In this document: one piece after another, positions 16,648-39,975 of the stretch
How the letters are laid out: each line of letters begins with the position of its first letter
Position numbering within the stretch: the stretch's first letter is position 1
DNA from: Muribaculaceae bacterium
GTDB taxonomy: Bacteria; Bacteroidota; Bacteroidia; Bacteroidales; Muribaculaceae
Direction: 5' to 3'
Length of the DNA stretch: 64,000 bases
Assembly (NCBI GenBank): GCA_051878575.1
Contig: JBJEKJ010000099.1
Location: 10,686 to 74,685, forward strand
Translations under genes and position numbers: made by a program
Notes under the pieces: generated by a model
Seen by the model: only the letters and a program-made list of their open reading frames with translations
The model's database searches: none
Told to the model about the DNA's origin: nothing

Positions 16648-17559
16648 TTAGTAGGTTATATTGTATTTGCGGAGAAGCAGGTCGGGATAATAGGATTGTT
16701 TTGCCTGGCGCAGGCCCGGATCTCCGGCGTCGTCCTCGCGGTTCACCATGTCGATTTGGCTGCGCTCGCGGCAATAGCGCACGAATGCCATGTTAATGAA
16801 CTCGTTGGCTCCTGCGAAGCTGTGGTCGGTCTTTTCGATGTGAACGTGCAGTGTGGTGCCCGTTATCTCGCCGATGGCGAATGCCGCGATGTCGGTTCCG
16901 GCATATAGCACTATGCCGGTGAAAGCCTCGGAGTAGCGTGCGAAGTCGTGGAGCACGCGGCGCGTCTGGTTACGCTCATAGCCGGCCATTCCGTTGTTGC
17001 TCTTGGTGAGGCACAGGCGGTCGAAGAAGGCTCTCGCGGCGTCGATATTGTCCTTGCCCAGCGGCTCGATGTGGTGGTCGGGGTAGGAGGATATGAACTT
17101 GTTCACATGGTTGCGCTTTTTCTTCATCTTGTTGCCTACGAGGGTGGCGAGCTTTGCGGCGTCGTAGATGTAGTCGCTCCACTGCGTCAGCTCATAGACG
17201 CCGGTCGGGTTCAGGGCCATAAAGTCGTCAATCCGCTCCTCGGTGATTGCCGAGAATTCGAGTTGCAGCCCCTCGTAGGCGCAATGCTCCTTAAGTAGAG
17301 CCACCGCCTCGTCGAGCGGCATTGCTCCGATAGGAAGCGAGAAGGCCGTCCGCCTCACGTCGTCCTCAGCCACGCCCTTGATTAGCAGAGTGTCGCGATA
17401 GATGCAGTAGTGATACTTGAAGTAGTCGATCCACATGTAGATTCCTCCCACGGTGTAGTCGCAAGAGCGGCTTCCCGACTGCCTGAGGTAGGGCAGCACG
17501 AGTGGCAGTGAGTTGAAAGTGAGCCTATGAAATTTCAGCCGTCGTCCGTCGTTGTCCAT
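16648..17559 (-). CDS. DUF2156-like protein (related to the C-terminal domain of phosphatidylglycerol lysyltransferase)
   Basis: 303 aa. The N-terminal pattern LTFNSLPLVLPYLRQSGSRSCDYTVGGIYMWIDYF resembles the DUF2156/LPG-synthase-C family. Assigned from memory of the family. Confidence 0.55.
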   Translation of the reverse strand: MDNDGRRLKFHRLTFNSLPLVLPYLRQSGSRSCDYTVGGIYMWIDYFKYHYCIYRDTLLIKGVAEDDVRRTAFSLPIGAMPLDEAVALLKEHCAYEGLQLEFSAITEERIDDFMALNPTGVYELTQWSDYIYDAAKLATLVGNKMKKKRNHVNKFISSYPDHHIEPLGKDNIDAARAFFDRLCLTKSNNGMAGYERNQTRRVLHDFARYSEAFTGIVLYAGTDIAAFAIGEITGTTLHVHIEKTDHSFAGANEFINMAFVRYCRERSQIDMVNREDDAGDPGLRQAKQSYYPDLLLRKYNITY

Positions 17560-17609
17560 AAGAAAATAAACTTCCCTGTGTTTTTTGATTATTCACTCTC
17601 ATGCGAGCG

Positions 17610-18734
17610 TCAGCAGCCCACTATCCATTTGCTTCCGGGCAGGAGCGAGAGCAGCTTGGTGGTGACCACGCAGCATAGATAGGATGCTATGGCTATGCAA
17701 GGAATGGCTATGCTAACCGGCAGTATGGGATTGGCGGGATCGCCTGCCACGAAGGCGCTTGCTATTTGCGAGAGGAAGAACATGTGCATAAGATACATTC
17801 CGAAGGACAGTCTCGACACCTCGGCAATGAGTCGCGGAGTCTTTGGCTTGTCGATGCAAGAGAAGAGCAGGAATGCGCCGAATGATGCGCAAAGCACGTT
17901 GGGGGTGCAGAATTCCCACGACCATTCGAGCAGCGGAGTCTCGATAATCTGTCCGGGAACGCCCTTCCACCAGAACGACCATCCGGTGAATGCGGCTCCT
18001 GCCAATAAGCACACTGCGCCTATCGCCAGTCGCTTGCCGCGTTGCCATGTGATGTGGTGGCGTATGTAGTGTGCGAGCACGAGGTAGCCGAGATAGCCCG
18101 AGCAATACCACAGCATGCTGAAACGGTTCCAGAAGCATTCTCCCCACAATTCGGGAGTGATGAAGGTGTGAAGCCACGGAATCAGCGTGGAGGCGGCGAA
18201 GAAGCCGAGGAAGATGCGCTCGTCGCGCGCCGACGCGCGCTCAAGCCACGGCGACACCACGGGGATGATGATGTAGAGGCTGATAAGCGGATACATGAAC
18301 CACAGATGCCCCGCCATCGCCGGGAAATTGAACACGATGCGCCACAAGTCGGCCATCGACTCCCACAATGTCATGCCATTCCATAGCGGGGGCAGCATGG
18401 TGTAGAGCACCATGAAAATGATAGACGGCGGCATGACGCGCATGAAGCGGCGGCGATAGAATTGCGTCATTGTGGTGCCGGGCTTCATGGGCACGAGCAG
18501 GAATGCCGACACTATCATGAACAGCGGAACGCTGATGCGCCCTAAGAATCCGTCGTAGAATGCCACCCAGAAGCGGTTGCTCTCATTGGCAAGCATCGAC
18601 ACCGAGCCTGCGAGCCCCGACGAGTCGGCGCCATAGAAATTCTCGCTTGCATGCACAAGCATCACCAAAAAACATGCTATCACGCGAATGTAGTCCACGA
18701 ATACCACCCTGTCGTTCCTCTCCATAAATTCCAA
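17610..18734 (-). CDS. Acyltransferase family 3 integral membrane protein
   Basis: 374 aa and polytopic. N-terminal VFVDYIRVIACFLVMLVHA, with the conserved His typical of Acyl_transf_3. Confidence 0.8.
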   Translation of the reverse strand: MEFMERNDRVVFVDYIRVIACFLVMLVHASENFYGADSSGLAGSVSMLANESNRFWVAFYDGFLGRISVPLFMIVSAFLLVPMKPGTTMTQFYRRRFMRVMPPSIIFMVLYTMLPPLWNGMTLWESMADLWRIVFNFPAMAGHLWFMYPLISLYIIIPVVSPWLERASARDERIFLGFFAASTLIPWLHTFITPELWGECFWNRFSMLWYCSGYLGYLVLAHYIRHHITWQRGKRLAIGAVCLLAGAAFTGWSFWWKGVPGQIIETPLLEWSWEFCTPNVLCASFGAFLLFSCIDKPKTPRLIAEVSRLSFGMYLMHMFFLSQIASAFVAGDPANPILPVSIAIPCIAIASYLCCVVTTKLLSLLPGSKWIVGC

Positions 18735-20349: not shown

Positions 20350-22233
20350 ATGGCAGAAAAGAAATCATTTCTTAAAGGGAAAAAGCCGATTACCTTTCTT
20401 GACCTCTTTGCCGGTGCGGGAGGCATAAGCGAAGGGTTTCTTCAGGCATATACCTCTGATAAATATTTCAAGTTTATTCTTGCAAGCGATATTAACGAGA
20501 ATTGTGAGTTGACCCATATAGTAAGATACAATCATCAGTTAGGACTTGACACTAAGTTTCTTACTGCTGATATTATGGCTCCGGATTTTATACAGCGTCT
20601 GCTTGCTCAACTCGGAGATGAGGAAATTGATGTTGTGACAGGCGGTCCGAGCTGTCAGTCTTTCAGTTTGTCCGGCCGTCGCAGACGCTTTGATAAAAGG
20701 GATAATCTTTTCCTTCACTATCTGGCTGTTATCCGCAAATTGCGTCCTAAATACTTTGTTATGGAGAATGTCAAAGGACTTCTGACGAAAGACAAAGGGA
20801 AATTCAAGGATGCGATACTTCGTGAAATACGTTCTATTATCGACGATAAAAATATACCCTCATTTCTTCTGTTCCTTATTCGGCTTCTTGACAAAAACAC
20901 ATCATCGTTTGTCAAAAACTGTGTCCTTACAAAAATAAAAATGGAGGTTGCGGATGATGAAACGGCACGCTCTGAGCGAGACAATTATTTTGCCACACTT
21001 GAAGCACAGTTTAAGTCGATTACACGAAAAATAGACTATCGTCTCAGTAAATCCAATATCAACATTGCGACAATTCGACATGGTCTTAACCTACTCCGCC
21101 GAACCGATGAAAGAAACGCAATCTCCGCTGCTATCATCAATGAAAAAATGCAGGCTGACATTGACAATGATTTCTTTGTCAACCAGTTCAACAATTTCAT
21201 ATCGTTCATTGATGATTCGACGATAATAAACACCATCCTTTCTGCCATCGACACTTTCGCAGAGTTCGACAGCTCCTCTAACGATGTAGAGGAGTTCCGG
21301 GAAATGATAAAACTTTATTCCTATACGCTCGATGAGACATTCTCTCTTGTAAGGGATTTATCCAAAAGCAAAAAGGAAATCGAGGAGCTTGACAAGCATC
21401 TCGAAGATATAAGACTTTACAGGGTCGCTAAGCCAATTGTCGCTCTCGCTGCCGATTACGGCGTTCCGCAAAATCGCGAGCGAGTGCTTTTTATTGGCTG
21501 CCGAAAAGACCAAGAGCTTATAGATGCTGTTCCTCCCACTGTTACTGAGGAAGAAAAGGTAACAGTATATGAAGCTTTACACGATCTTGACTTCTTAGGT
21601 AACGGTGCCGTAGCAGAGACTTACGGCGCACAGCGTATAATGCCTGAATTTGAGCCGCTTATTCGCTGTCGTGAAGTGCAAGGCCATATTTCGGATGCCG
21701 AAGAAACACACACATTCTCCGAATGGTCTAAGATAGGCCGTTTCGGTCACAGGTTCGATTTCTGTTGTGAGCCTTTCTATGTTCGTTCTCTCGAAGACTT
21801 GAACAACAATCTTTTCTGCGAGGCTCCGGTTCTATACAATCATCAGACAAGCTCACAGAGCGATGATGTAAAAGAAAGACTCTCTATCATAGCCAAACAC
21901 GGGGTATATGACGAAGACTGCAAAGTCGAACTTACGCAGTTAGGTTTGGAATCCAATAAGAGAAACTATACCGTCCTTAATCCTAAAGGTCAAAGTCCTA
22001 CCGTAGTCACGATGCCTGACGATTTCATCCATTATGCCGCACATAGAGCAATGACAGTTAGAGAAATGGCACGTCTCCAATCTTTTGATGATTCATTTGT
22101 TTTTCAAGGGAAACGCCAAACCGGAGGCACCAAGAGAAAATCGGAGATTCCGCAATATACACTTGTTGGCAATGCCGTGCCTCCGCTGATGGCAAGGGCT
22201 ATAGCCAATACCATTCTTAAACACATAAAGTAG
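20350..22233 (+). CDS. DNA (cytosine-5)-methyltransferase, unusually long (627 aa)
   Basis: Motif I FLDLFAGAGGISEGF, motif IV GGPSCQSFS, motif VI ENVKGLL, motif VIII YGVPQNRERVLFIG, motif IX MTVREMARLQSF, motif X TLVGNAVPPLMARAIA. About 233 aa separate ENV from QNRER. Confidence 0.92.
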   Translation: MAEKKSFLKGKKPITFLDLFAGAGGISEGFLQAYTSDKYFKFILASDINENCELTHIVRYNHQLGLDTKFLTADIMAPDFIQRLLAQLGDEEIDVVTGGPSCQSFSLSGRRRRFDKRDNLFLHYLAVIRKLRPKYFVMENVKGLLTKDKGKFKDAILREIRSIIDDKNIPSFLLFLIRLLDKNTSSFVKNCVLTKIKMEVADDETARSERDNYFATLEAQFKSITRKIDYRLSKSNINIATIRHGLNLLRRTDERNAISAAIINEKMQADIDNDFFVNQFNNFISFIDDSTIINTILSAIDTFAEFDSSSNDVEEFREMIKLYSYTLDETFSLVRDLSKSKKEIEELDKHLEDIRLYRVAKPIVALAADYGVPQNRERVLFIGCRKDQELIDAVPPTVTEEEKVTVYEALHDLDFLGNGAVAETYGAQRIMPEFEPLIRCREVQGHISDAEETHTFSEWSKIGRFGHRFDFCCEPFYVRSLEDLNNNLFCEAPVLYNHQTSSQSDDVKERLSIIAKHGVYDEDCKVELTQLGLESNKRNYTVLNPKGQSPTVVTMPDDFIHYAAHRAMTVREMARLQSFDDSFVFQGKRQTGGTKRKSEIPQYTLVGNAVPPLMARAIANTILKHIK

Positions 22234-22239
22234 CATATC

Positions 22240-23457
22240 ATGATACACATGCGCCCATACAATGCTTTTGAAACCAAAAATGTCAAATTCTTGGTTGACA
22301 AGCAGGTGGAATTTGCAACAATACAAATCACCGAAACCGGATTAAAGAAAAGCATTTTGGATGCAACAGCTCCTGTTCGTGCTTATTTTAAGGAGAAGAA
22401 CATTCATGACTATGAAACCCAACTTCAAGGTCCTGAACACAAGCGCGTCGTAGACACATACATACTCACGGAGGAAAAACAGCACCATGCAAAGACCTCT
22501 CTTTATAGACCCGTCACAAAAAAAGGCGACCCTCGCCTATGGGTAAATAAAGTTAGGGATGTGGAGTTCCTTCGTGCAAATGATATTTTCGCATTTATCG
22601 CGCACAGAGGTATCCTTTTCACCATAAACCTTACGACTGTAAACATTGAAAAAGTTTGTATGTCGCCCATTGATACGCCATTGAAGGATTTGATTTTTGA
22701 AATCTCTTGCCGGAAAACTTCTATCAGCAACGAATTGCTTGAATTGATAAAGGATAGAATGTCTGACTGGATGCCCGCTGAAATATTGGCTGATACCGGT
22801 ATTGGACGAACCGTTGAATCAGTTCTTGGTATAGACATGAATCCTTCAAAGAGACCTGATTATAAGGGCATCGAATTAAAAAGCCATCGCGAGGCATCCA
22901 AAGTACGCAACACACTATTTACTCAAGCGCCCGAATGGGCTATAAGCCGGTTAAAAAGCGGACGAGCTATTGTTGAAGAGTATGGTTATATCCCTGACGG
23001 ATACATTCATAAATCTTTACACGTCACACTTACAGCGAACAGGCCAAACCCACAGGGTCTCGGTCTGTTAGTTCAACCACAATTAGGTATATTGGAAGCT
23101 GACGAGTTCGCGCGGATAGCGTTGGATGATGGCTCTTTCAGAAAAATTAATGACGTTGCGGCTTGGCAACTTATAAATCTACATGAACGCTTGCTTACAA
23201 AGCATCATGAGACCTTTTGGATTGAAGCGGAGACCAAAAAAGAATCGGGCCAAGAATATTTCCGCGTGTCGCAAATTCTCCACACCAAGAATCCTATTAC
23301 TTCTCAGTTCGATGTCCTTCTTGATCAAGGACAAATCACTGTGGACTTTTTGCTTTGCCGTGATTCCGGCGGTGACACTTACAGCTTTAAGATAAATGGA
23401 AAAGCCCGACACCTATTATTCCCACAGAGCGAAACGTATAGGCTTCAATCCATTTGA
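22240..23457 (+). CDS. Putative Type II restriction endonuclease: unassigned N-terminal module plus C-terminal BcnI/MvaI/MutH-type PD-(D/E)XK core
   Basis: 405 aa, starting 6 nt after the methyltransferase stop. The segment GIGRTVESVLGIDMNPSKRPDYKGIELKSHR matches the MutH/Sau3AI/BcnI pattern (G.G..E..LG......D-x4-E-x-K). It shares the AT-rich composition of the methyltransferase gene. Confidence 0.6.
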   Translation: MIHMRPYNAFETKNVKFLVDKQVEFATIQITETGLKKSILDATAPVRAYFKEKNIHDYETQLQGPEHKRVVDTYILTEEKQHHAKTSLYRPVTKKGDPRLWVNKVRDVEFLRANDIFAFIAHRGILFTINLTTVNIEKVCMSPIDTPLKDLIFEISCRKTSISNELLELIKDRMSDWMPAEILADTGIGRTVESVLGIDMNPSKRPDYKGIELKSHREASKVRNTLFTQAPEWAISRLKSGRAIVEEYGYIPDGYIHKSLHVTLTANRPNPQGLGLLVQPQLGILEADEFARIALDDGSFRKINDVAAWQLINLHERLLTKHHETFWIEAETKKESGQEYFRVSQILHTKNPITSQFDVLLDQGQITVDFLLCRDSGGDTYSFKINGKARHLLFPQSETYRLQSI

Positions 23458-28976: not shown

Positions 28977-29004
28977 AGAGGCAGCTCACCCCTGAGCTGC
29001 CTCT
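28977..29004. terminator. Bidirectional hairpin terminator between the gamma-CA gene (+) and the HTH-nuclease gene (-)
   Basis: Perfect 12-bp stem agaggcagctca / tgagctgcctct with loop cccc. T/A-rich sequence on both sides. Confidence 0.65.
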
Positions 29005-29035: not shown

Positions 29036-29761
29036 TTATATAAATCCCGCTAATTGCCGCTCCATACACATAACCTCATATTGTCTGGATATGTCCTCGT
29101 AGGAATGGAACTTCACTCTATTTTTAATATCTTTGAATGCCGTTCGGCTCATTACCTTCTCAAATTGCTCTCGTCTATTACAAGGAGCAACAATTATGAA
29201 TCGGCTGTTGAAGTCTTGAAGATCGCAGAATTTTATTACTGAGTTTTGTATATCAGTTGAGTGCTCTATCTCAAAGAAGCTATTAGGCATTTTGCGCTCG
29301 TTAAACCAAATGACATCAATGGTGCGAGCTCGATTTATCAAATTGTCATACGAAAATTTGGGGATTTGAACGGTTGAGCAGATTTCTATCAAAGGCTTGT
29401 CCAAAAACAACTTGTTTTGGTCTTGTGCAGGCACAAATGTGGTGAAATTTTTCATATTGCCTATTGCAGTGACAAGACCTTGGTAGTAGCCGTGAGTAAA
29501 TATCTCGTGGGGCTTTATTTCTTTGGTCCCTAAATTGAATTTACCGAGCACTTCTTCTCTGCAATCTTCCAAGGCCCACAATCCGGGTTGAATCTTGAAT
29601 ATTTCTTTTGAAAGCTGAACTATTTGGCGGATTGAAGCCTGTGGGGTTTTTGTTGCCCATGATGATGTGTCAACGAGATTATATAGGCTTCCGAGTGTAG
29701 CGTAGCCTCCATTCTTTCGCAGGGCATCGATGACTTGTTGCTTTTGTGTTTGTTTTGCCAT
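29036..29761 (-). CDS. Hypothetical protein: N-terminal winged-helix (HARE-HTH-like) plus C-terminal restriction-endonuclease-like domain
   Basis: 241 aa. N-terminus QVIDALRKNGGYATLGSLYNLV...FKIQPGLWALED resembles HARE-HTH. C-terminal half has a candidate acidic centre, D149 (IDVIW) and E164/E166 (FFEIEHSTD). Strongly AT-rich relative to both flanks. Confidence 0.5.
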   Translation of the reverse strand: MAKQTQKQQVIDALRKNGGYATLGSLYNLVDTSSWATKTPQASIRQIVQLSKEIFKIQPGLWALEDCREEVLGKFNLGTKEIKPHEIFTHGYYQGLVTAIGNMKNFTTFVPAQDQNKLFLDKPLIEICSTVQIPKFSYDNLINRARTIDVIWFNERKMPNSFFEIEHSTDIQNSVIKFCDLQDFNSRFIIVAPCNRREQFEKVMSRTAFKDIKNRVKFHSYEDISRQYEVMCMERQLAGFI

Positions 29762-29783
29762 TGCTGTGGGGGATTGGTGGGGA

Positions 29784-30626
29784 TTAGTGGGGGAGGGTTT
29801 CGCGGGCGGTTTTCAGCATGTGGGTGGGGAGCGAGCCTCCGCGCCGGTCGGGTGCGGGACCTATCATGTGATTGCCGCTGTTGCTCCTTAAGTTGTCGAT
29901 TATGCCGAGTATGGCCCCGCCCAAATCCACGCCGAAGGAGTGCTTGCCGAGTTTGAATGATGGTGCCACGATGGGCATCATCGTCCAGCGGTTCATGAAA
30001 GGATCGAACATGCGCCTCACGCCGAGCTCCAAGCCGAAGGCTGATCCCGTCTGATACCGTATCGAGCCTCCGAAGCAGGAGTGGTTCATATAGGGTATTG
30101 CCGCGGGCGAGTCGAATGGGTTGCCGGCTGAATAGTTGCCAAACACGCTAAGCGACAGCCGCTCGTTGATGTGATAGGTGATGCTGCCCGATACGCCGAA
30201 GTCGTTGTATAGATTTCTGTTGACGTGGTATTTGTAGCCCGATATCGCGCCGGTGAGTGTCAGGCTGCCGAGGTTTTGAGCAATGCCTATCGTGGCGCTG
30301 CCGAAATTGCCCAATCCCGGCATCGACGTGTAATTCCCGTAGCCGAATGTGCTGCCGTCAAGTCTGCCCGTGTGGAGGCTTTCATTGAGCCTGAGGGCTT
30401 GAGGCTGGTGTAATGCCGGCCTGTTGCCGCCGAAGTCACGGACGGGACTGGTGCCTATGCCGTCGTAGCTTATAGTGTCGGGCAGAAAGAGCGAGTCGGG
30501 CAAGGTAAGCTGCTCATACGGCAATGTCTTGCTGCCGGCGATGCCGGTAGACGTGTCTTGCGCCTGCATGGAGGCCGGGGCACACATCATCATGCAACAG
30601 ATTGACAGAAATACGGGATTTTTCAT
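29784..30626 (-). CDS. Hypothetical secreted, beta-rich (outer-membrane-like) protein
   Basis: 280 aa with a signal peptide (CAPASMQAQD). Gly/Ser/Tyr/Asn-rich alternating segments suggest a beta-barrel. Confidence 0.45.
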   Translation of the reverse strand: MKNPVFLSICCMMMCAPASMQAQDTSTGIAGSKTLPYEQLTLPDSLFLPDTISYDGIGTSPVRDFGGNRPALHQPQALRLNESLHTGRLDGSTFGYGNYTSMPGLGNFGSATIGIAQNLGSLTLTGAISGYKYHVNRNLYNDFGVSGSITYHINERLSLSVFGNYSAGNPFDSPAAIPYMNHSCFGGSIRYQTGSAFGLELGVRRMFDPFMNRWTMMPIVAPSFKLGKHSFGVDLGGAILGIIDNLRSNSGNHMIGPAPDRRGGSLPTHMLKTARETLPH

Positions 30627-38794: not shown

Positions 38795-39520
38795 ATGAAC
38801 GTGAAATTTGGAATCGCGGCCATGCTTGCCGCAGTGATGCTGCTTGTCGCAGCCGATGCGCAGGCGCAATATCGCTCTCGTCCTCGCCCGGTGCCGGCGC
38901 AGCGACATGCGGCGATACCGCGCGCCTACGATAGTGGCTCGTCCGATGATGATATGTGTTATAAAGGTTTTATCGAGGCGGGCTATTCGGCCGGAGTGGG
39001 AAACTACCGTGCCAATCAGCTCGACGTGCTCACAACACACGGCGTGGCCATAGGCGACGGATTCGTGGGCGTTGGTACCGGTGTCAACGTGCTTTTTCCA
39101 AAGGAGGAGGGCGTAGGAACCAACTGGAGCATGGGCGACTACGGCAATGGATATCGACCTCAGGGCACGAAATATCGCAGCGAGAATGCGGTGTTCATTC
39201 CTTTGTATCTCGACTTGAAGTATAATTTCTCGGGCAGCTCGGTGTCGCCATTCGTGGATTTGAAGTTGGGTGGCACATTCCTTGTCAACGACAATGCCGT
39301 GTGCTTGGGCAATGGTTGGATCGACAATCGGACAAGTGTGTATTGTAGCCCCTCAGTGGGTGTGCGCATACCTATAGGCGGCAGTGCGGCTTTCAATGTG
39401 GCTGTCACCTATACGCTTATCTCTCAGAAGTATTACTATTACGATTATTGGGACGGACCGGTCTATAGTGATGGCATTTCACTCCATTCGCTCGGCGCGA
39501 GACTGTCAATAGAGTGGTGA
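38795..39520 (+). CDS. Outer-membrane beta-barrel protein (porin-family-like)
   Basis: 241 aa with a signal peptide (VAADAQAQ), alternating beta-strand pattern and a C-terminal aromatic residue (LSIEW). It starts 3 nt after the ATPase stop. Confidence 0.55.
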   Translation: MNVKFGIAAMLAAVMLLVAADAQAQYRSRPRPVPAQRHAAIPRAYDSGSSDDDMCYKGFIEAGYSAGVGNYRANQLDVLTTHGVAIGDGFVGVGTGVNVLFPKEEGVGTNWSMGDYGNGYRPQGTKYRSENAVFIPLYLDLKYNFSGSSVSPFVDLKLGGTFLVNDNAVCLGNGWIDNRTSVYCSPSVGVRIPIGGSAAFNVAVTYTLISQKYYYYDYWDGPVYSDGISLHSLGARLSIEW

Positions 39521-39567
39521 AAGTGCTGAAAAGTTGCATTGTAATAGTTAAAAATACTTAATACTAA

Positions 39568-39597
39568 CTCTCGCAGACTTGATTTGCGGGAGTTTTT
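39568..39597 (+). terminator. Intrinsic terminator after the ATPase-OMP pair
   Basis: 8-bp stem ctctcgca / tgcgggag (one G-T pair) followed by TTTTT. Confidence 0.55.
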
Positions 39598-39975
39598 GCG
39601 TTTTGATTAACTTAAAATAGGAGGTTTGTTTAACATTCGGGGGCTGTTGAGAGCAAATACGGCCCTGACAGGCTTTTGTTATGATTGATAGTGTGGCTTT
39701 CGGGGCACATCTCAAGGGTGTGAGAGAATGAATGTGACATAGATGCGCGAATAGTGTGCAAAAATGCTTATTTTTAGATATATGCGATAGCCTATAAAGT
39801 CGATTGGAATAAATTATTATACATATAACAGCTATTTGAAGGTGTCTGATTGTAATTTTATGAGCACAAATAATTGCAAATCGTAAGTAAAAAGAGAAAA
39901 AAGAAATGGTTTGTTCGGAAATGTGCCGTTTGTGTTAAAGTTGCGAATTTTGCATAAATCATTTGCAAATTGATG

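Follow-up and report, generated by a model that had tools for sequence, protein, structure and literature searches.

A 64,000-nucleotide stretch of contig JBJEKJ010000099.1 from the Muribaculaceae bacterium assembly GCA_051878575.1 (positions 10,686 to 74,685; hereafter the window) carries on its minus strand, at 29036..29761, an open reading frame (ORF) with an ATG start, the 241-amino acid (aa) product of which joins a HARE-HTH winged-helix (wH) domain to an endonuclease-like cleavage domain of the NmeDI_C family. This focal gene very probably encodes an active, defence-type endonuclease acquired by horizontal gene transfer. The family to which it belongs originates in a DpnII-like three-gene cassette, and its nuclease is found under constraint amid flanking methylases that are decaying, a combination that is unusual for restriction-modification (R-M) systems. 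The class of architecture was already known from the computational literature and the cleavage domain from Pfam; what is new is the family-level picture of a DpnII-like ancestral cassette, repeated methylase decay and spread as a bare ORF. Public records label the family proteins only as "hypothetical protein," and NCBIfam holds no model for the family. The ORF contains all of the peptides quoted in an initial annotation of the stretch, which had been made from the sequence alone.

Domain architecture and predicted active centre

The C-terminus of the focal protein (aa 78-241; 29039..29530, minus strand), for which a restriction-endonuclease-like core of order alpha-beta-beta-beta-alpha-beta is predicted, constitutes a restriction-endonuclease-like cleavage module with its centre at H90, D149, and E164-x-E166. 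The initial annotation had recognized the nature of this domain and left its family unnamed; a name does exist, as PF27126 (NmeDI_C) is annotated on the exact window protein and on all 120 homologs among the matches listed. In agreement with this, the PADLOC REase_II model PDLC03534, which represents R.NmeDI, matches aa 93-238 (E = 9.1e-13; model positions 181-333 of 351), residues 1-92 of the window protein remaining unaligned. Searches with the window protein of NCBIfam and of a Pfam release without PF27126 returned noise only, PHROGs gave no match, and a PDB sequence search produced only spurious matches to bromodomains.

Across an alignment of 61 family members with identities down to 28%, H90 (codon 29492..29494, in the first core helix) and D149 (codon 29315..29317, at the start of the second core strand and a predicted metal ligand) are invariant, and Q94, G101, T108, D114, W152, E164, E166, and T169 are each conserved in at least 90% of the sequences. 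E164 and E166, encoded with the intervening isoleucine as GAG ATA GAG at 29264..29272 in the third core strand, are invariant in a 33-member alignment of the domain. The nuclease centre had initially been proposed to comprise D149, E164, E166, and K177; the three acidic residues stand, but K177 is invariant among closer relatives only, and H90, Q94, and D114 are better conserved than that incomplete list suggested. In the structural model, D149 would be positioned just before a predicted strand at 150-153, and E164 and E166 at the end of another at 159-165, a layout predicted to be that of the restriction-endonuclease fold with a variant motif, the third position of the acidic motif being glutamate and not lysine (E-x-E for the canonical (D/E)-x-K). 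Known enzymes with such an E-x-E variant, BamHI among them, are active. A domain-only model of the C-terminus attained a predicted local distance difference test (pLDDT) score of 93.7. The neighbours returned by Foldseek for the whole chain and for this domain, none of them significant, are nearly all nucleases of the restriction-endonuclease fold, viz. Mus81, BsoBI, YaeQ, FANCM/FAAP24, Can2, MunI, and FokI. Foldseek searches of PDB and BFVD with the whole chain gave no significant neighbour; since no solved structure represents the cleavage domain, the fold is assigned from homology to R.NmeDI and from topology.

The N-terminus (aa 1-72; 29546..29761, minus strand) is assigned to the HARE-HTH type of winged helix and would serve as the targeting module, with the GLWAL beta-hairpin at its end, as had been surmised from the sequence. 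A Pfam scan of the window protein alone gave no match to PF05066 (HARE-HTH) at E <= 10; this model matches 30 of the 61 family members (best E = 1.8e-6), and hhalign comparison of the family's N-terminal profile with a bona fide HARE-HTH, the first domain of P0127 (Pfam E = 3e-16), returned a probability of 88% (E = 2.8e-6). The AlphaFold2 model of the whole protein (pLDDT 96; predicted template modelling score 0.91) has the secondary-structure order H-E-H-H-E-E over aa 1-70 (pLDDT > 94), and Foldseek matches this winged helix to forkhead domains with a probability of ~1.0. The GLWAL sequence at residues 60-64 fits the pattern G-[LIV]-[WY]-x-L on the C-terminal beta-hairpin, and P40, I44, G60, and L64 are conserved in at least 90% of family members. 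Comparison of the domain profiles with PDB sequences, those of DpnI and the RNA polymerase delta subunit included, gave no match.

Linked adenine methylases, their decay, and constraint on the nuclease

Neighbouring genes were counted at 79 genome loci, the genomes having been scanned with an alignment of closer relatives. A DpnD/PcfM + N6_N4 methylase of ~345 aa is located at +1 or +2 on the same strand in 36 of these loci, and a D12 methylase or a fragment thereof at -1 or -2 in 17. The D12 methylase scores 256 bits with TIGR00571 (dam; cutoff 115) and is thus of the Dam family; its closest counterpart is DpnM, the GATC methylase of the DpnII system (8e-51; closest solved relative 2DPM). The N6_N4 methylase is closest to CcrM, next to an entry labelled DpnA. 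In its fullest form, the module has the order Dam/DpnM-like methylase, nuclease, CcrM/DpnA-like methylase, often accompanied by a KilA-N gene, and it resembles a DpnII-type cassette, but with an unrelated nuclease.

The state of the methylases was assessed by tblastn with full-length reference methylases, followed by correction of the calls by hand, at 57 loci with at least 1.5 kb of sequence on both sides, 52 of which have a full-length nuclease; methylases within ~3.5 kb were considered. At least one intact adjacent methylase was found in ~13 of the 52 loci, degraded remnants only in ~19, and no trace of a methylase in the other 20. The lesions are mutually independent across loci, and include point mutations of motif IV (DPPY to DPPD in L037 and DPPY to DRPY in L095), an internal deletion (L075), a nonsense codon (L033), and 5' truncation where a gene for a 113-aa protein abuts (L030, L042, L070); stubs of <130 aa and D12 fragments of 96-184 aa were also encountered. 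The suggestion that the gene has no methyltransferase partner is thus correct for the focal locus, where no DNA methyltransferase gene adjoins it, but does not extend to the family, in which adenine methylases are intact in about a quarter and decayed in more than a third of loci.

The nuclease itself has been preserved. Of 72 full-length copies, 71 retain an intact H90-D149-E164-E166 core, namely all 27 from methylase-less loci, 26 of 27 from loci with degraded methylases, and all 18 from loci with intact ones, and the median pairwise ratio of nonsynonymous to synonymous substitution rates (dN/dS; NG86) is 0.05-0.08 in each methylase class, pairs in which both loci are methylase-less included, which amounts to strong purifying selection. 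An intact core and low dN/dS in every class indicate that the nuclease is functional independently of a linked methylase.

Insertion of the focal gene

A single ORF, the focal gene, has been inserted in a lineage-specific manner into the interval from the stop codon of a host gene to its terminator region, in the genome of an uncultured, Muribaculaceae-like member of the Bacteroidales. The host gene, located directly upstream (29784..30626, minus strand), encodes a lineage-restricted signal-peptide protein of 280 aa with only seven homolog clusters, and it marks the insertion site. In four relatives (L015, L016, L017, and L019), the site is empty, with the convergent hexapeptide-repeat gene coming immediately after the ortholog of this secreted-protein gene; the site is likewise empty in the closest relative available (L109), with an intergenic gap of 178 bp and an adjacent aminopeptidase that is 88% identical. 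An identical protein was found on five short metagenome contigs with its neighbours unchanged. No homolog exceeds 73% DNA similarity to the focal gene, and the similarity extends no further than the ORF. As initially reported, the G+C (GC) content of the gene is low, at 0.40 compared to 0.51 for the 64-kb window, and that of its third codon positions is 0.43 compared to 0.68-0.74 in five flanking genes; in 67 of the 79 loci, the family gene is richer in AT than its host. Together, the empty sites in relatives, the loss of similarity at the ORF ends, and the AT-rich nature of the family argue for horizontal acquisition of a single gene, as had been proposed. Neither terminal inverted repeats nor target-site duplications were found flanking the focal gene, and the exact breakpoints are undefinable, as the intergenic DNA of the empty sites, even that of the relative with 88% identity, does not align with the window.

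Only 22 bp (29762..29783) separate the stop codon of the upstream gene (29784-29786) from the focal ATG, and a consensus scan found no promoter-like site upstream of this ATG. A spacer of this length is too short for a promoter, from which co-transcription with the upstream gene would follow, and this 280-aa gene probably supplies the transcription of the focal gene. Downstream, 31 bp past the focal stop codon, an inverted repeat (28977-28988 and 28993-29004) would form a hairpin (28977..29004, minus strand) with a perfect 12-bp stem and a 4-nt loop. The 22-bp spacer and the perfect stem agree with the initial description, in which the hairpin was taken to be a bidirectional terminator. It scores as terminator-like on the minus strand, that of the focal gene, but not on the other; with the convergent gene layout fitting the proposal and the strand scan half supporting it, bidirectional action is plausible.

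Dependence on a host operon for want of a promoter of its own would also suit a non-restriction role or a relic, such as a DNA-binding regulator, an inactive R-M remnant, or a MutH-like strand-discrimination nickase. MutL is encoded directly upstream of the family nuclease in two loci and the acidic triad lacks the canonical lysine, both of which could be accommodated by such a role. However, a dN/dS of ~0.05 and conservation of the H-D-E-E core speak against a relic, and patchy occurrence, AT-rich composition, horizontal transfer, and the empty sites of close relatives against housekeeping repair, leaving a role of this kind improbable.

Proposed mode of action

The consistency with which adenine methylases partner the family makes the state of adenine methylation the likely discriminator of self from foreign DNA. 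In the proposed mechanism, the HARE-HTH domain would read a short site at which adenine methylation matters, GATC being the leading candidate, and the NmeDI_C domain, probably as a dimer, would cut nearby whenever the site is in its "foreign" state. Methylation would block this cutting, and the host would owe its protection to an adenine methylation encoded at another place in its genome. Under such resident protection, the nuclease may be able to spread as a bare, "free-rider" ORF and to be maintained in this form, whereupon the linked methylase genes would become redundant and decay neutrally. Methylation-blocked cutting with unlinked protection of the host is offered tentatively, with nearly as much in its favour as against it, and we lean slightly toward it over a Type IV enzyme. 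In its favour, R.NmeDI, the only relative to have been characterized, is of the classical Type II kind and has a cognate methylase, and the full-length Dam-type methylase overlaps the start of the nuclease by 8 bp, in operonic fashion, in L074 and L075. Either methylase type may be the intact survivor beside an intact nuclease, an interchangeability that would follow from protection of a shared site by both types, for which DpnM and DpnA provide a precedent. The D12 partner is closest to the GATC methylase DpnM, GATC is the second most depleted 4-bp palindrome both in host flanks and in the window, and the HARE-HTH nucleases already described belong to R-M systems with N6A modification (Iyer et al., 2016; PMC4738411). 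Finally, three of five truncated nucleases adjoin an intact methylase, and loss of the nuclease before the methylase is the usual order of R-M decay.

A modification-dependent (Type IV or IIM) enzyme presents the chief alternative, whereby DNA that is methylated or otherwise modified would be bound by the HARE-HTH domain and cut next to the bound position by the NmeDI_C domain, the host being safe for want of that modification; the broken neighbouring methylases would then reflect the avoidance of conflict, akin to the switch of a cassette from DpnII-like to DpnI-like. Both this type of enzyme and such a switch are judged possible, if doubtful. The window copy and ~75% of the intact members do lack an intact linked methylase, and the neighbouring methylases bear many independent inactivating lesions, the same pattern as is seen beside wH nucleases dependent on N6-methyladenine (6mA, also m6A) (Helbrecht et al., 2024; PMC11037411). 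For each methylase type, however, there are genomes in which an intact copy lies close to an intact nuclease and in the same orientation, which implies that the nuclease tolerates both methylations and removes conflict avoidance as the cause of decay. Purifying selection on the nuclease regardless of methylase state, and the occurrence of some copies inside Type I operons or beside McrC, would be in keeping with a Type IV enzyme, whereas the characterized relative R.NmeDI is methylation-sensitive and not methylation-dependent. Likewise, HARE-HTH domains are predicted to read modified DNA (PMC4738411), and the pairing of a sensor with a cleavage module, to which tandem HARE-HTH forms (P0124, P0127) may be added, resembles the layout of known modification-dependent enzymes, but the HARE-HTH differs from the DpnI-type wH domains of such enzymes (Helbrecht et al., 2024; PMC11037411) and no similarity was detected between the N-terminal profile of the family and DpnI-type methyl-reading wH domains. 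Hence, of the initial proposal of a stand-alone defence or Type IV-like element, the defence part is upheld by the contexts in which homologs occur, and the Type IV part is weakened by the history of the methylases and by R.NmeDI.

A bolder form of the Type IV proposal has the HARE-HTH domain as a reader of methyl-adenine and the family as a new, widespread m6A-dependent Type IV class in the gut Bacteroidales, the arrival of the nuclease in DpnII-like cassettes being what would drive the repeated, independent inactivation of Dam- and DpnA-type methylases. We consider it rather unlikely. If true, it would provide both the first functional assignment for a prokaryotic HARE-HTH and a testable hypothesis for that of the ASXL proteins; to our knowledge, the ligand of the HARE-HTH domain is not known even in the human ASXL proteins.

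Several points weigh against the preferred proposal of methylation-blocked cutting. For approximately 39 of the 52 intact nuclease genes, no methylase within ~3.5 kb is intact, and a methylation-blocked enzyme requires an unlinked protecting methylase in ~75% of its hosts; no Dam-type or N6_N4 DNA methylase was found within the 64-kb window. A methylase-independent, Type IV-like enzyme would account better for the copies found within Type I operons or adjoining McrBC. With respect to GATC, the nearest solved relative of the downstream methylase is CcrM, which acts on GANTC, and not a proven GATC enzyme, and the depletion of GATC is clade-wide and so provides no tie between this site and the focal enzyme. 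More generally, nuclease activity of the focal protein is a property that we infer, and Foldseek comparison of its C-terminal domain with PDB structures gave no significant match (E >= 0.04; template modelling score <= 0.4).

Whichever way methylation acts, constraint on the nuclease amid loss of the methylases is suggestive either of "free-riding" on methylation already resident or of restriction that depends on modification. The family also joins two modules of general interest, the HARE-HTH domain and a cleavage domain of the NmeDI type that cuts outside its site. Solitary nucleases of this kind are barriers to the genetic manipulation of gut Bacteroidales, and the family enzymes would be candidate reagents should they cleave at a fixed distance.

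Comparison with known systems

R.NmeDI from Neisseria meningitidis is a 351-aa, methylation-sensitive Type II enzyme with a cognate methylase; it recognizes RCCGGY and cuts on both sides of this site (PMC2095814). Its C-terminal ~150 aa are homologous to the focal protein and the two probably have their cleavage chemistry in common; by analogy, the focal enzyme would cut outside its bound site as R.NmeDI does at a fixed distance. They differ in that the 180-aa N-terminal part of R.NmeDI is replaced in the focal protein by the 72-aa HARE-HTH domain, in that the overlapping C5 methylase gene of NmeDI has no equivalent at the focal gene, and in that the partners of the focal family are adenine and not C5 methylases. 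The specificity of NmeDI for RCCGGY is not expected to be shared by the focal enzyme, and, without its N-terminal part and C5 methylase, the focal protein is not an NmeDI enzyme in the strict sense. Classical Type II R-M systems differ further from the focal locus by their linked cognate methyltransferase, which is absent from the latter.

Proteins in which HARE-HTH and restriction-endonuclease-fold domains are fused were reportedly predicted computationally by Aravind and Iyer in 2012. HARE-HTH nucleases have since been described as the restriction components of N6A-modifying R-M systems (Iyer et al., 2016; PMC4738411), and the focal family shares its class of architecture and its link to N6-adenine methylases with the fusions in that report and in that of Burroughs/Aravind (2024), both of which are computational and general in scope. 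A further comparison is with wH-nuclease fusions, FcyTI, Psp4BI, HtuIII, Ahi29725I, and others, that have been characterized as Type IV enzymes dependent on 6mA (Helbrecht et al., 2024; PMC11037411). Like the focal family, these combine a winged-helix reader with a nuclease, mostly without a linked active methylase and in some cases beside inactivated methylase genes; unlike it, their wH is of the DpnI type and not HARE-HTH, and their nuclease family and domain order are different. The HARE-HTH + NmeDI_C family, its DpnII-like ancestral module, and the decay of its methylases are not described in Helbrecht et al. (2024), Iyer et al. (2016), or Burroughs/Aravind (2024).

With the DpnII/DpnI cassettes of Streptococcus pneumoniae, the family has in common a DpnM-like D12 methylase, a DpnD/PcfM beta-class adenine methylase, and a single nuclease, as well as the question of whether cutting at an adenine-methylated site is blocked by or dependent on methylation. 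The family nuclease is, however, unrelated to both DpnII (DpnB) and DpnI, the gene order is M1-R-M2, and the GATC specificity of the family is presumptive.

Distribution and gene neighbourhoods of the family

The family comprises 2,458 clusters at 90% identity and 865 at 50%, and occurs in at least 590 species-level genomes, mostly of Prevotella and other (gut) Bacteroidales, together with cultured Firmicutes and a Halobacterium plasmid; individual variants are present on hundreds of gut metagenome contigs. Phage carriage was also considered, but no match was found in 50,697 phage records and only five family loci among 2.9 million viral contigs, and the idea was rejected on the basis of this near-absence.

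Homologs are enriched in defence and R-M contexts. Apart from the adenine methylases, the neighbours recorded at the 79 loci include a 113-aa protein of no known family at +1 (20 loci), a KilA-N protein at -1 (14 loci), hsdS and hsdR of Type I systems in Firmicutes at -1 and +1, respectively (four loci), and McrC at -1 (two loci); Gabija-like OLD/UvrD and Fic genes were found near one P. pectinovora-type locus. In the four Firmicutes loci (L072, L077, L083, and L098, from Butyrivibrio, Lachnospiraceae, Anaerovibrio, and Ruminococcus), the homolog is situated inside the Type I operon, hsdS being 8-33 bp upstream and hsdR 12-54 bp downstream, and there is no Type II methylase in the vicinity.

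The KilA-N protein, of 266-316 aa, is encoded directly upstream of the nuclease with a gap of -4 to 10 bp (L006-L014, L022, L025, L028-L030, L056, and others). Its presence in the abundant P. pectinovora and P0043 lineages and its full-length match to the PADLOC candidate PDC-S22 (E = 3e-127) raise the prospect that the nuclease is the effector of a two-gene module, in which case the orphan copy in the window would be inert or only partly functional. Yet 65 of the 79 loci have no KilA-N gene and the nuclease is equally conserved and constrained in them, PDC-S22 is listed as a single-gene candidate, and the position of the KilA-N gene, between the D12 fragment and the nuclease, looks like the result of a secondary insertion; there is little likelihood of such a module. 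The ~130 aa at the C-terminus of the KilA-N protein match no family. That this region might represent the missing half of the truncated D12 methylase was considered and found to be unsupported, Pfam matching the KilA-N domain only.

The small protein, of 111-113 aa, is encoded directly after the nuclease (L070:7725-8060 and 19 other loci) and has no match in Pfam, NCBIfam, or PADLOC. Where its gene is present, the downstream N6_N4 methylase is truncated at its 5' end at or just before the DPPY motif, as though the DpnD/PcfM N-terminus of the methylase had given way to the small gene.

Family nucleases with tandem HARE-HTH domains (P0124, P0127) and the presence of unrelated N-termini on NmeDI_C in P0261, P0265, and plasmid proteins of 420-430 aa suggest that NmeDI_C behaves as a portable cleavage domain paired with varied N-terminal sensors. 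The longer relatives were also considered as possible representatives of NmeDI itself; this was rejected, as they are tandem HARE-HTH forms, other N-terminal fusions, or read-through fusions with methylase fragments. The plasmid proteins, annotated as "type II restriction endonuclease," have a C-terminal NmeDI_C domain preceded by ~270 aa without a family match, and are encoded in heavy-metal resistance regions of Proteobacteria and Actinobacteria (L101:4260-5525, L102:4209-5504, and 13 other plasmid records). Their genes are solitary, with no methylase listed nearby in gene tables that are incomplete.

Site usage and a second restriction system in the window

The GATC tetranucleotide occurs 70 times in the window compared to an expected 314 +/- 17, i.e., at ~22-29% of expectation, and it is the second most depleted 4-bp palindrome there; CTAG, with 154 +/- 12 occurrences in shuffled sequences, and CATATG are absent altogether. 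AACGTT and CTGCAG are present at ~0.1 of expectation. The analysis also covered L001, L015-L019, and 68 host loci. In the pooled flanks of the host loci, the most depleted 4-bp palindromes are again CTAG (observed/expected ratio, O/E, 0.08) and GATC (0.35). The depletion of GATC was considered as evidence for the target of the focal enzyme and rejected for this purpose, as the relatives with an empty site are as depleted in GATC and CTAG as are the carriers.

The methylase nearest to the focal gene, 6.8 kb distant, is of the C5 type and belongs to a separate R-M pair of the MvaI/BcnI type. This complete Type II pair occupies a low-GC patch at 20350-23457 (plus strand), and consists of an unusually long C5 methylase of 627 aa (20350-22233), with PF00145 in two stretches, and, 6 bp after it, an endonuclease of the MvaI/BcnI family of 405 aa, the N-terminal 174 aa of which have no assigned family. 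Depletion in the window of CCWGG (O/E 0.59) and not CCSGG (0.97) suggests that the resident pair has an MvaI-like specificity. In the relative L112, the gene for an AraC-type regulator lies directly beside the lyase gene with no R-M pair between them, and the pair is accordingly a second lineage-specific insertion, which lies ~6 kb away from the focal one.

The acyltransferase and LPG-synthase-C genes at 16648-18734 of the window lie beyond the block that extends from the lyase to the hexapeptide-repeat gene, and in L109, L016, and L017 they flank the secreted-protein gene. The arrangement in the window is consistent with an inversion of ~8-11 kb, both ends of which coincide with the two restriction-gene insertions. 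The lowest GC content of the window is found not in the focal gene but at ~39.5 kb, where a stretch of GC 0.35 (~39300-39900) overlaps the end of an ORF of 241 aa at 38795-39520, which has no match in Pfam, and the intergenic region that precedes an ORF of 1051 aa.

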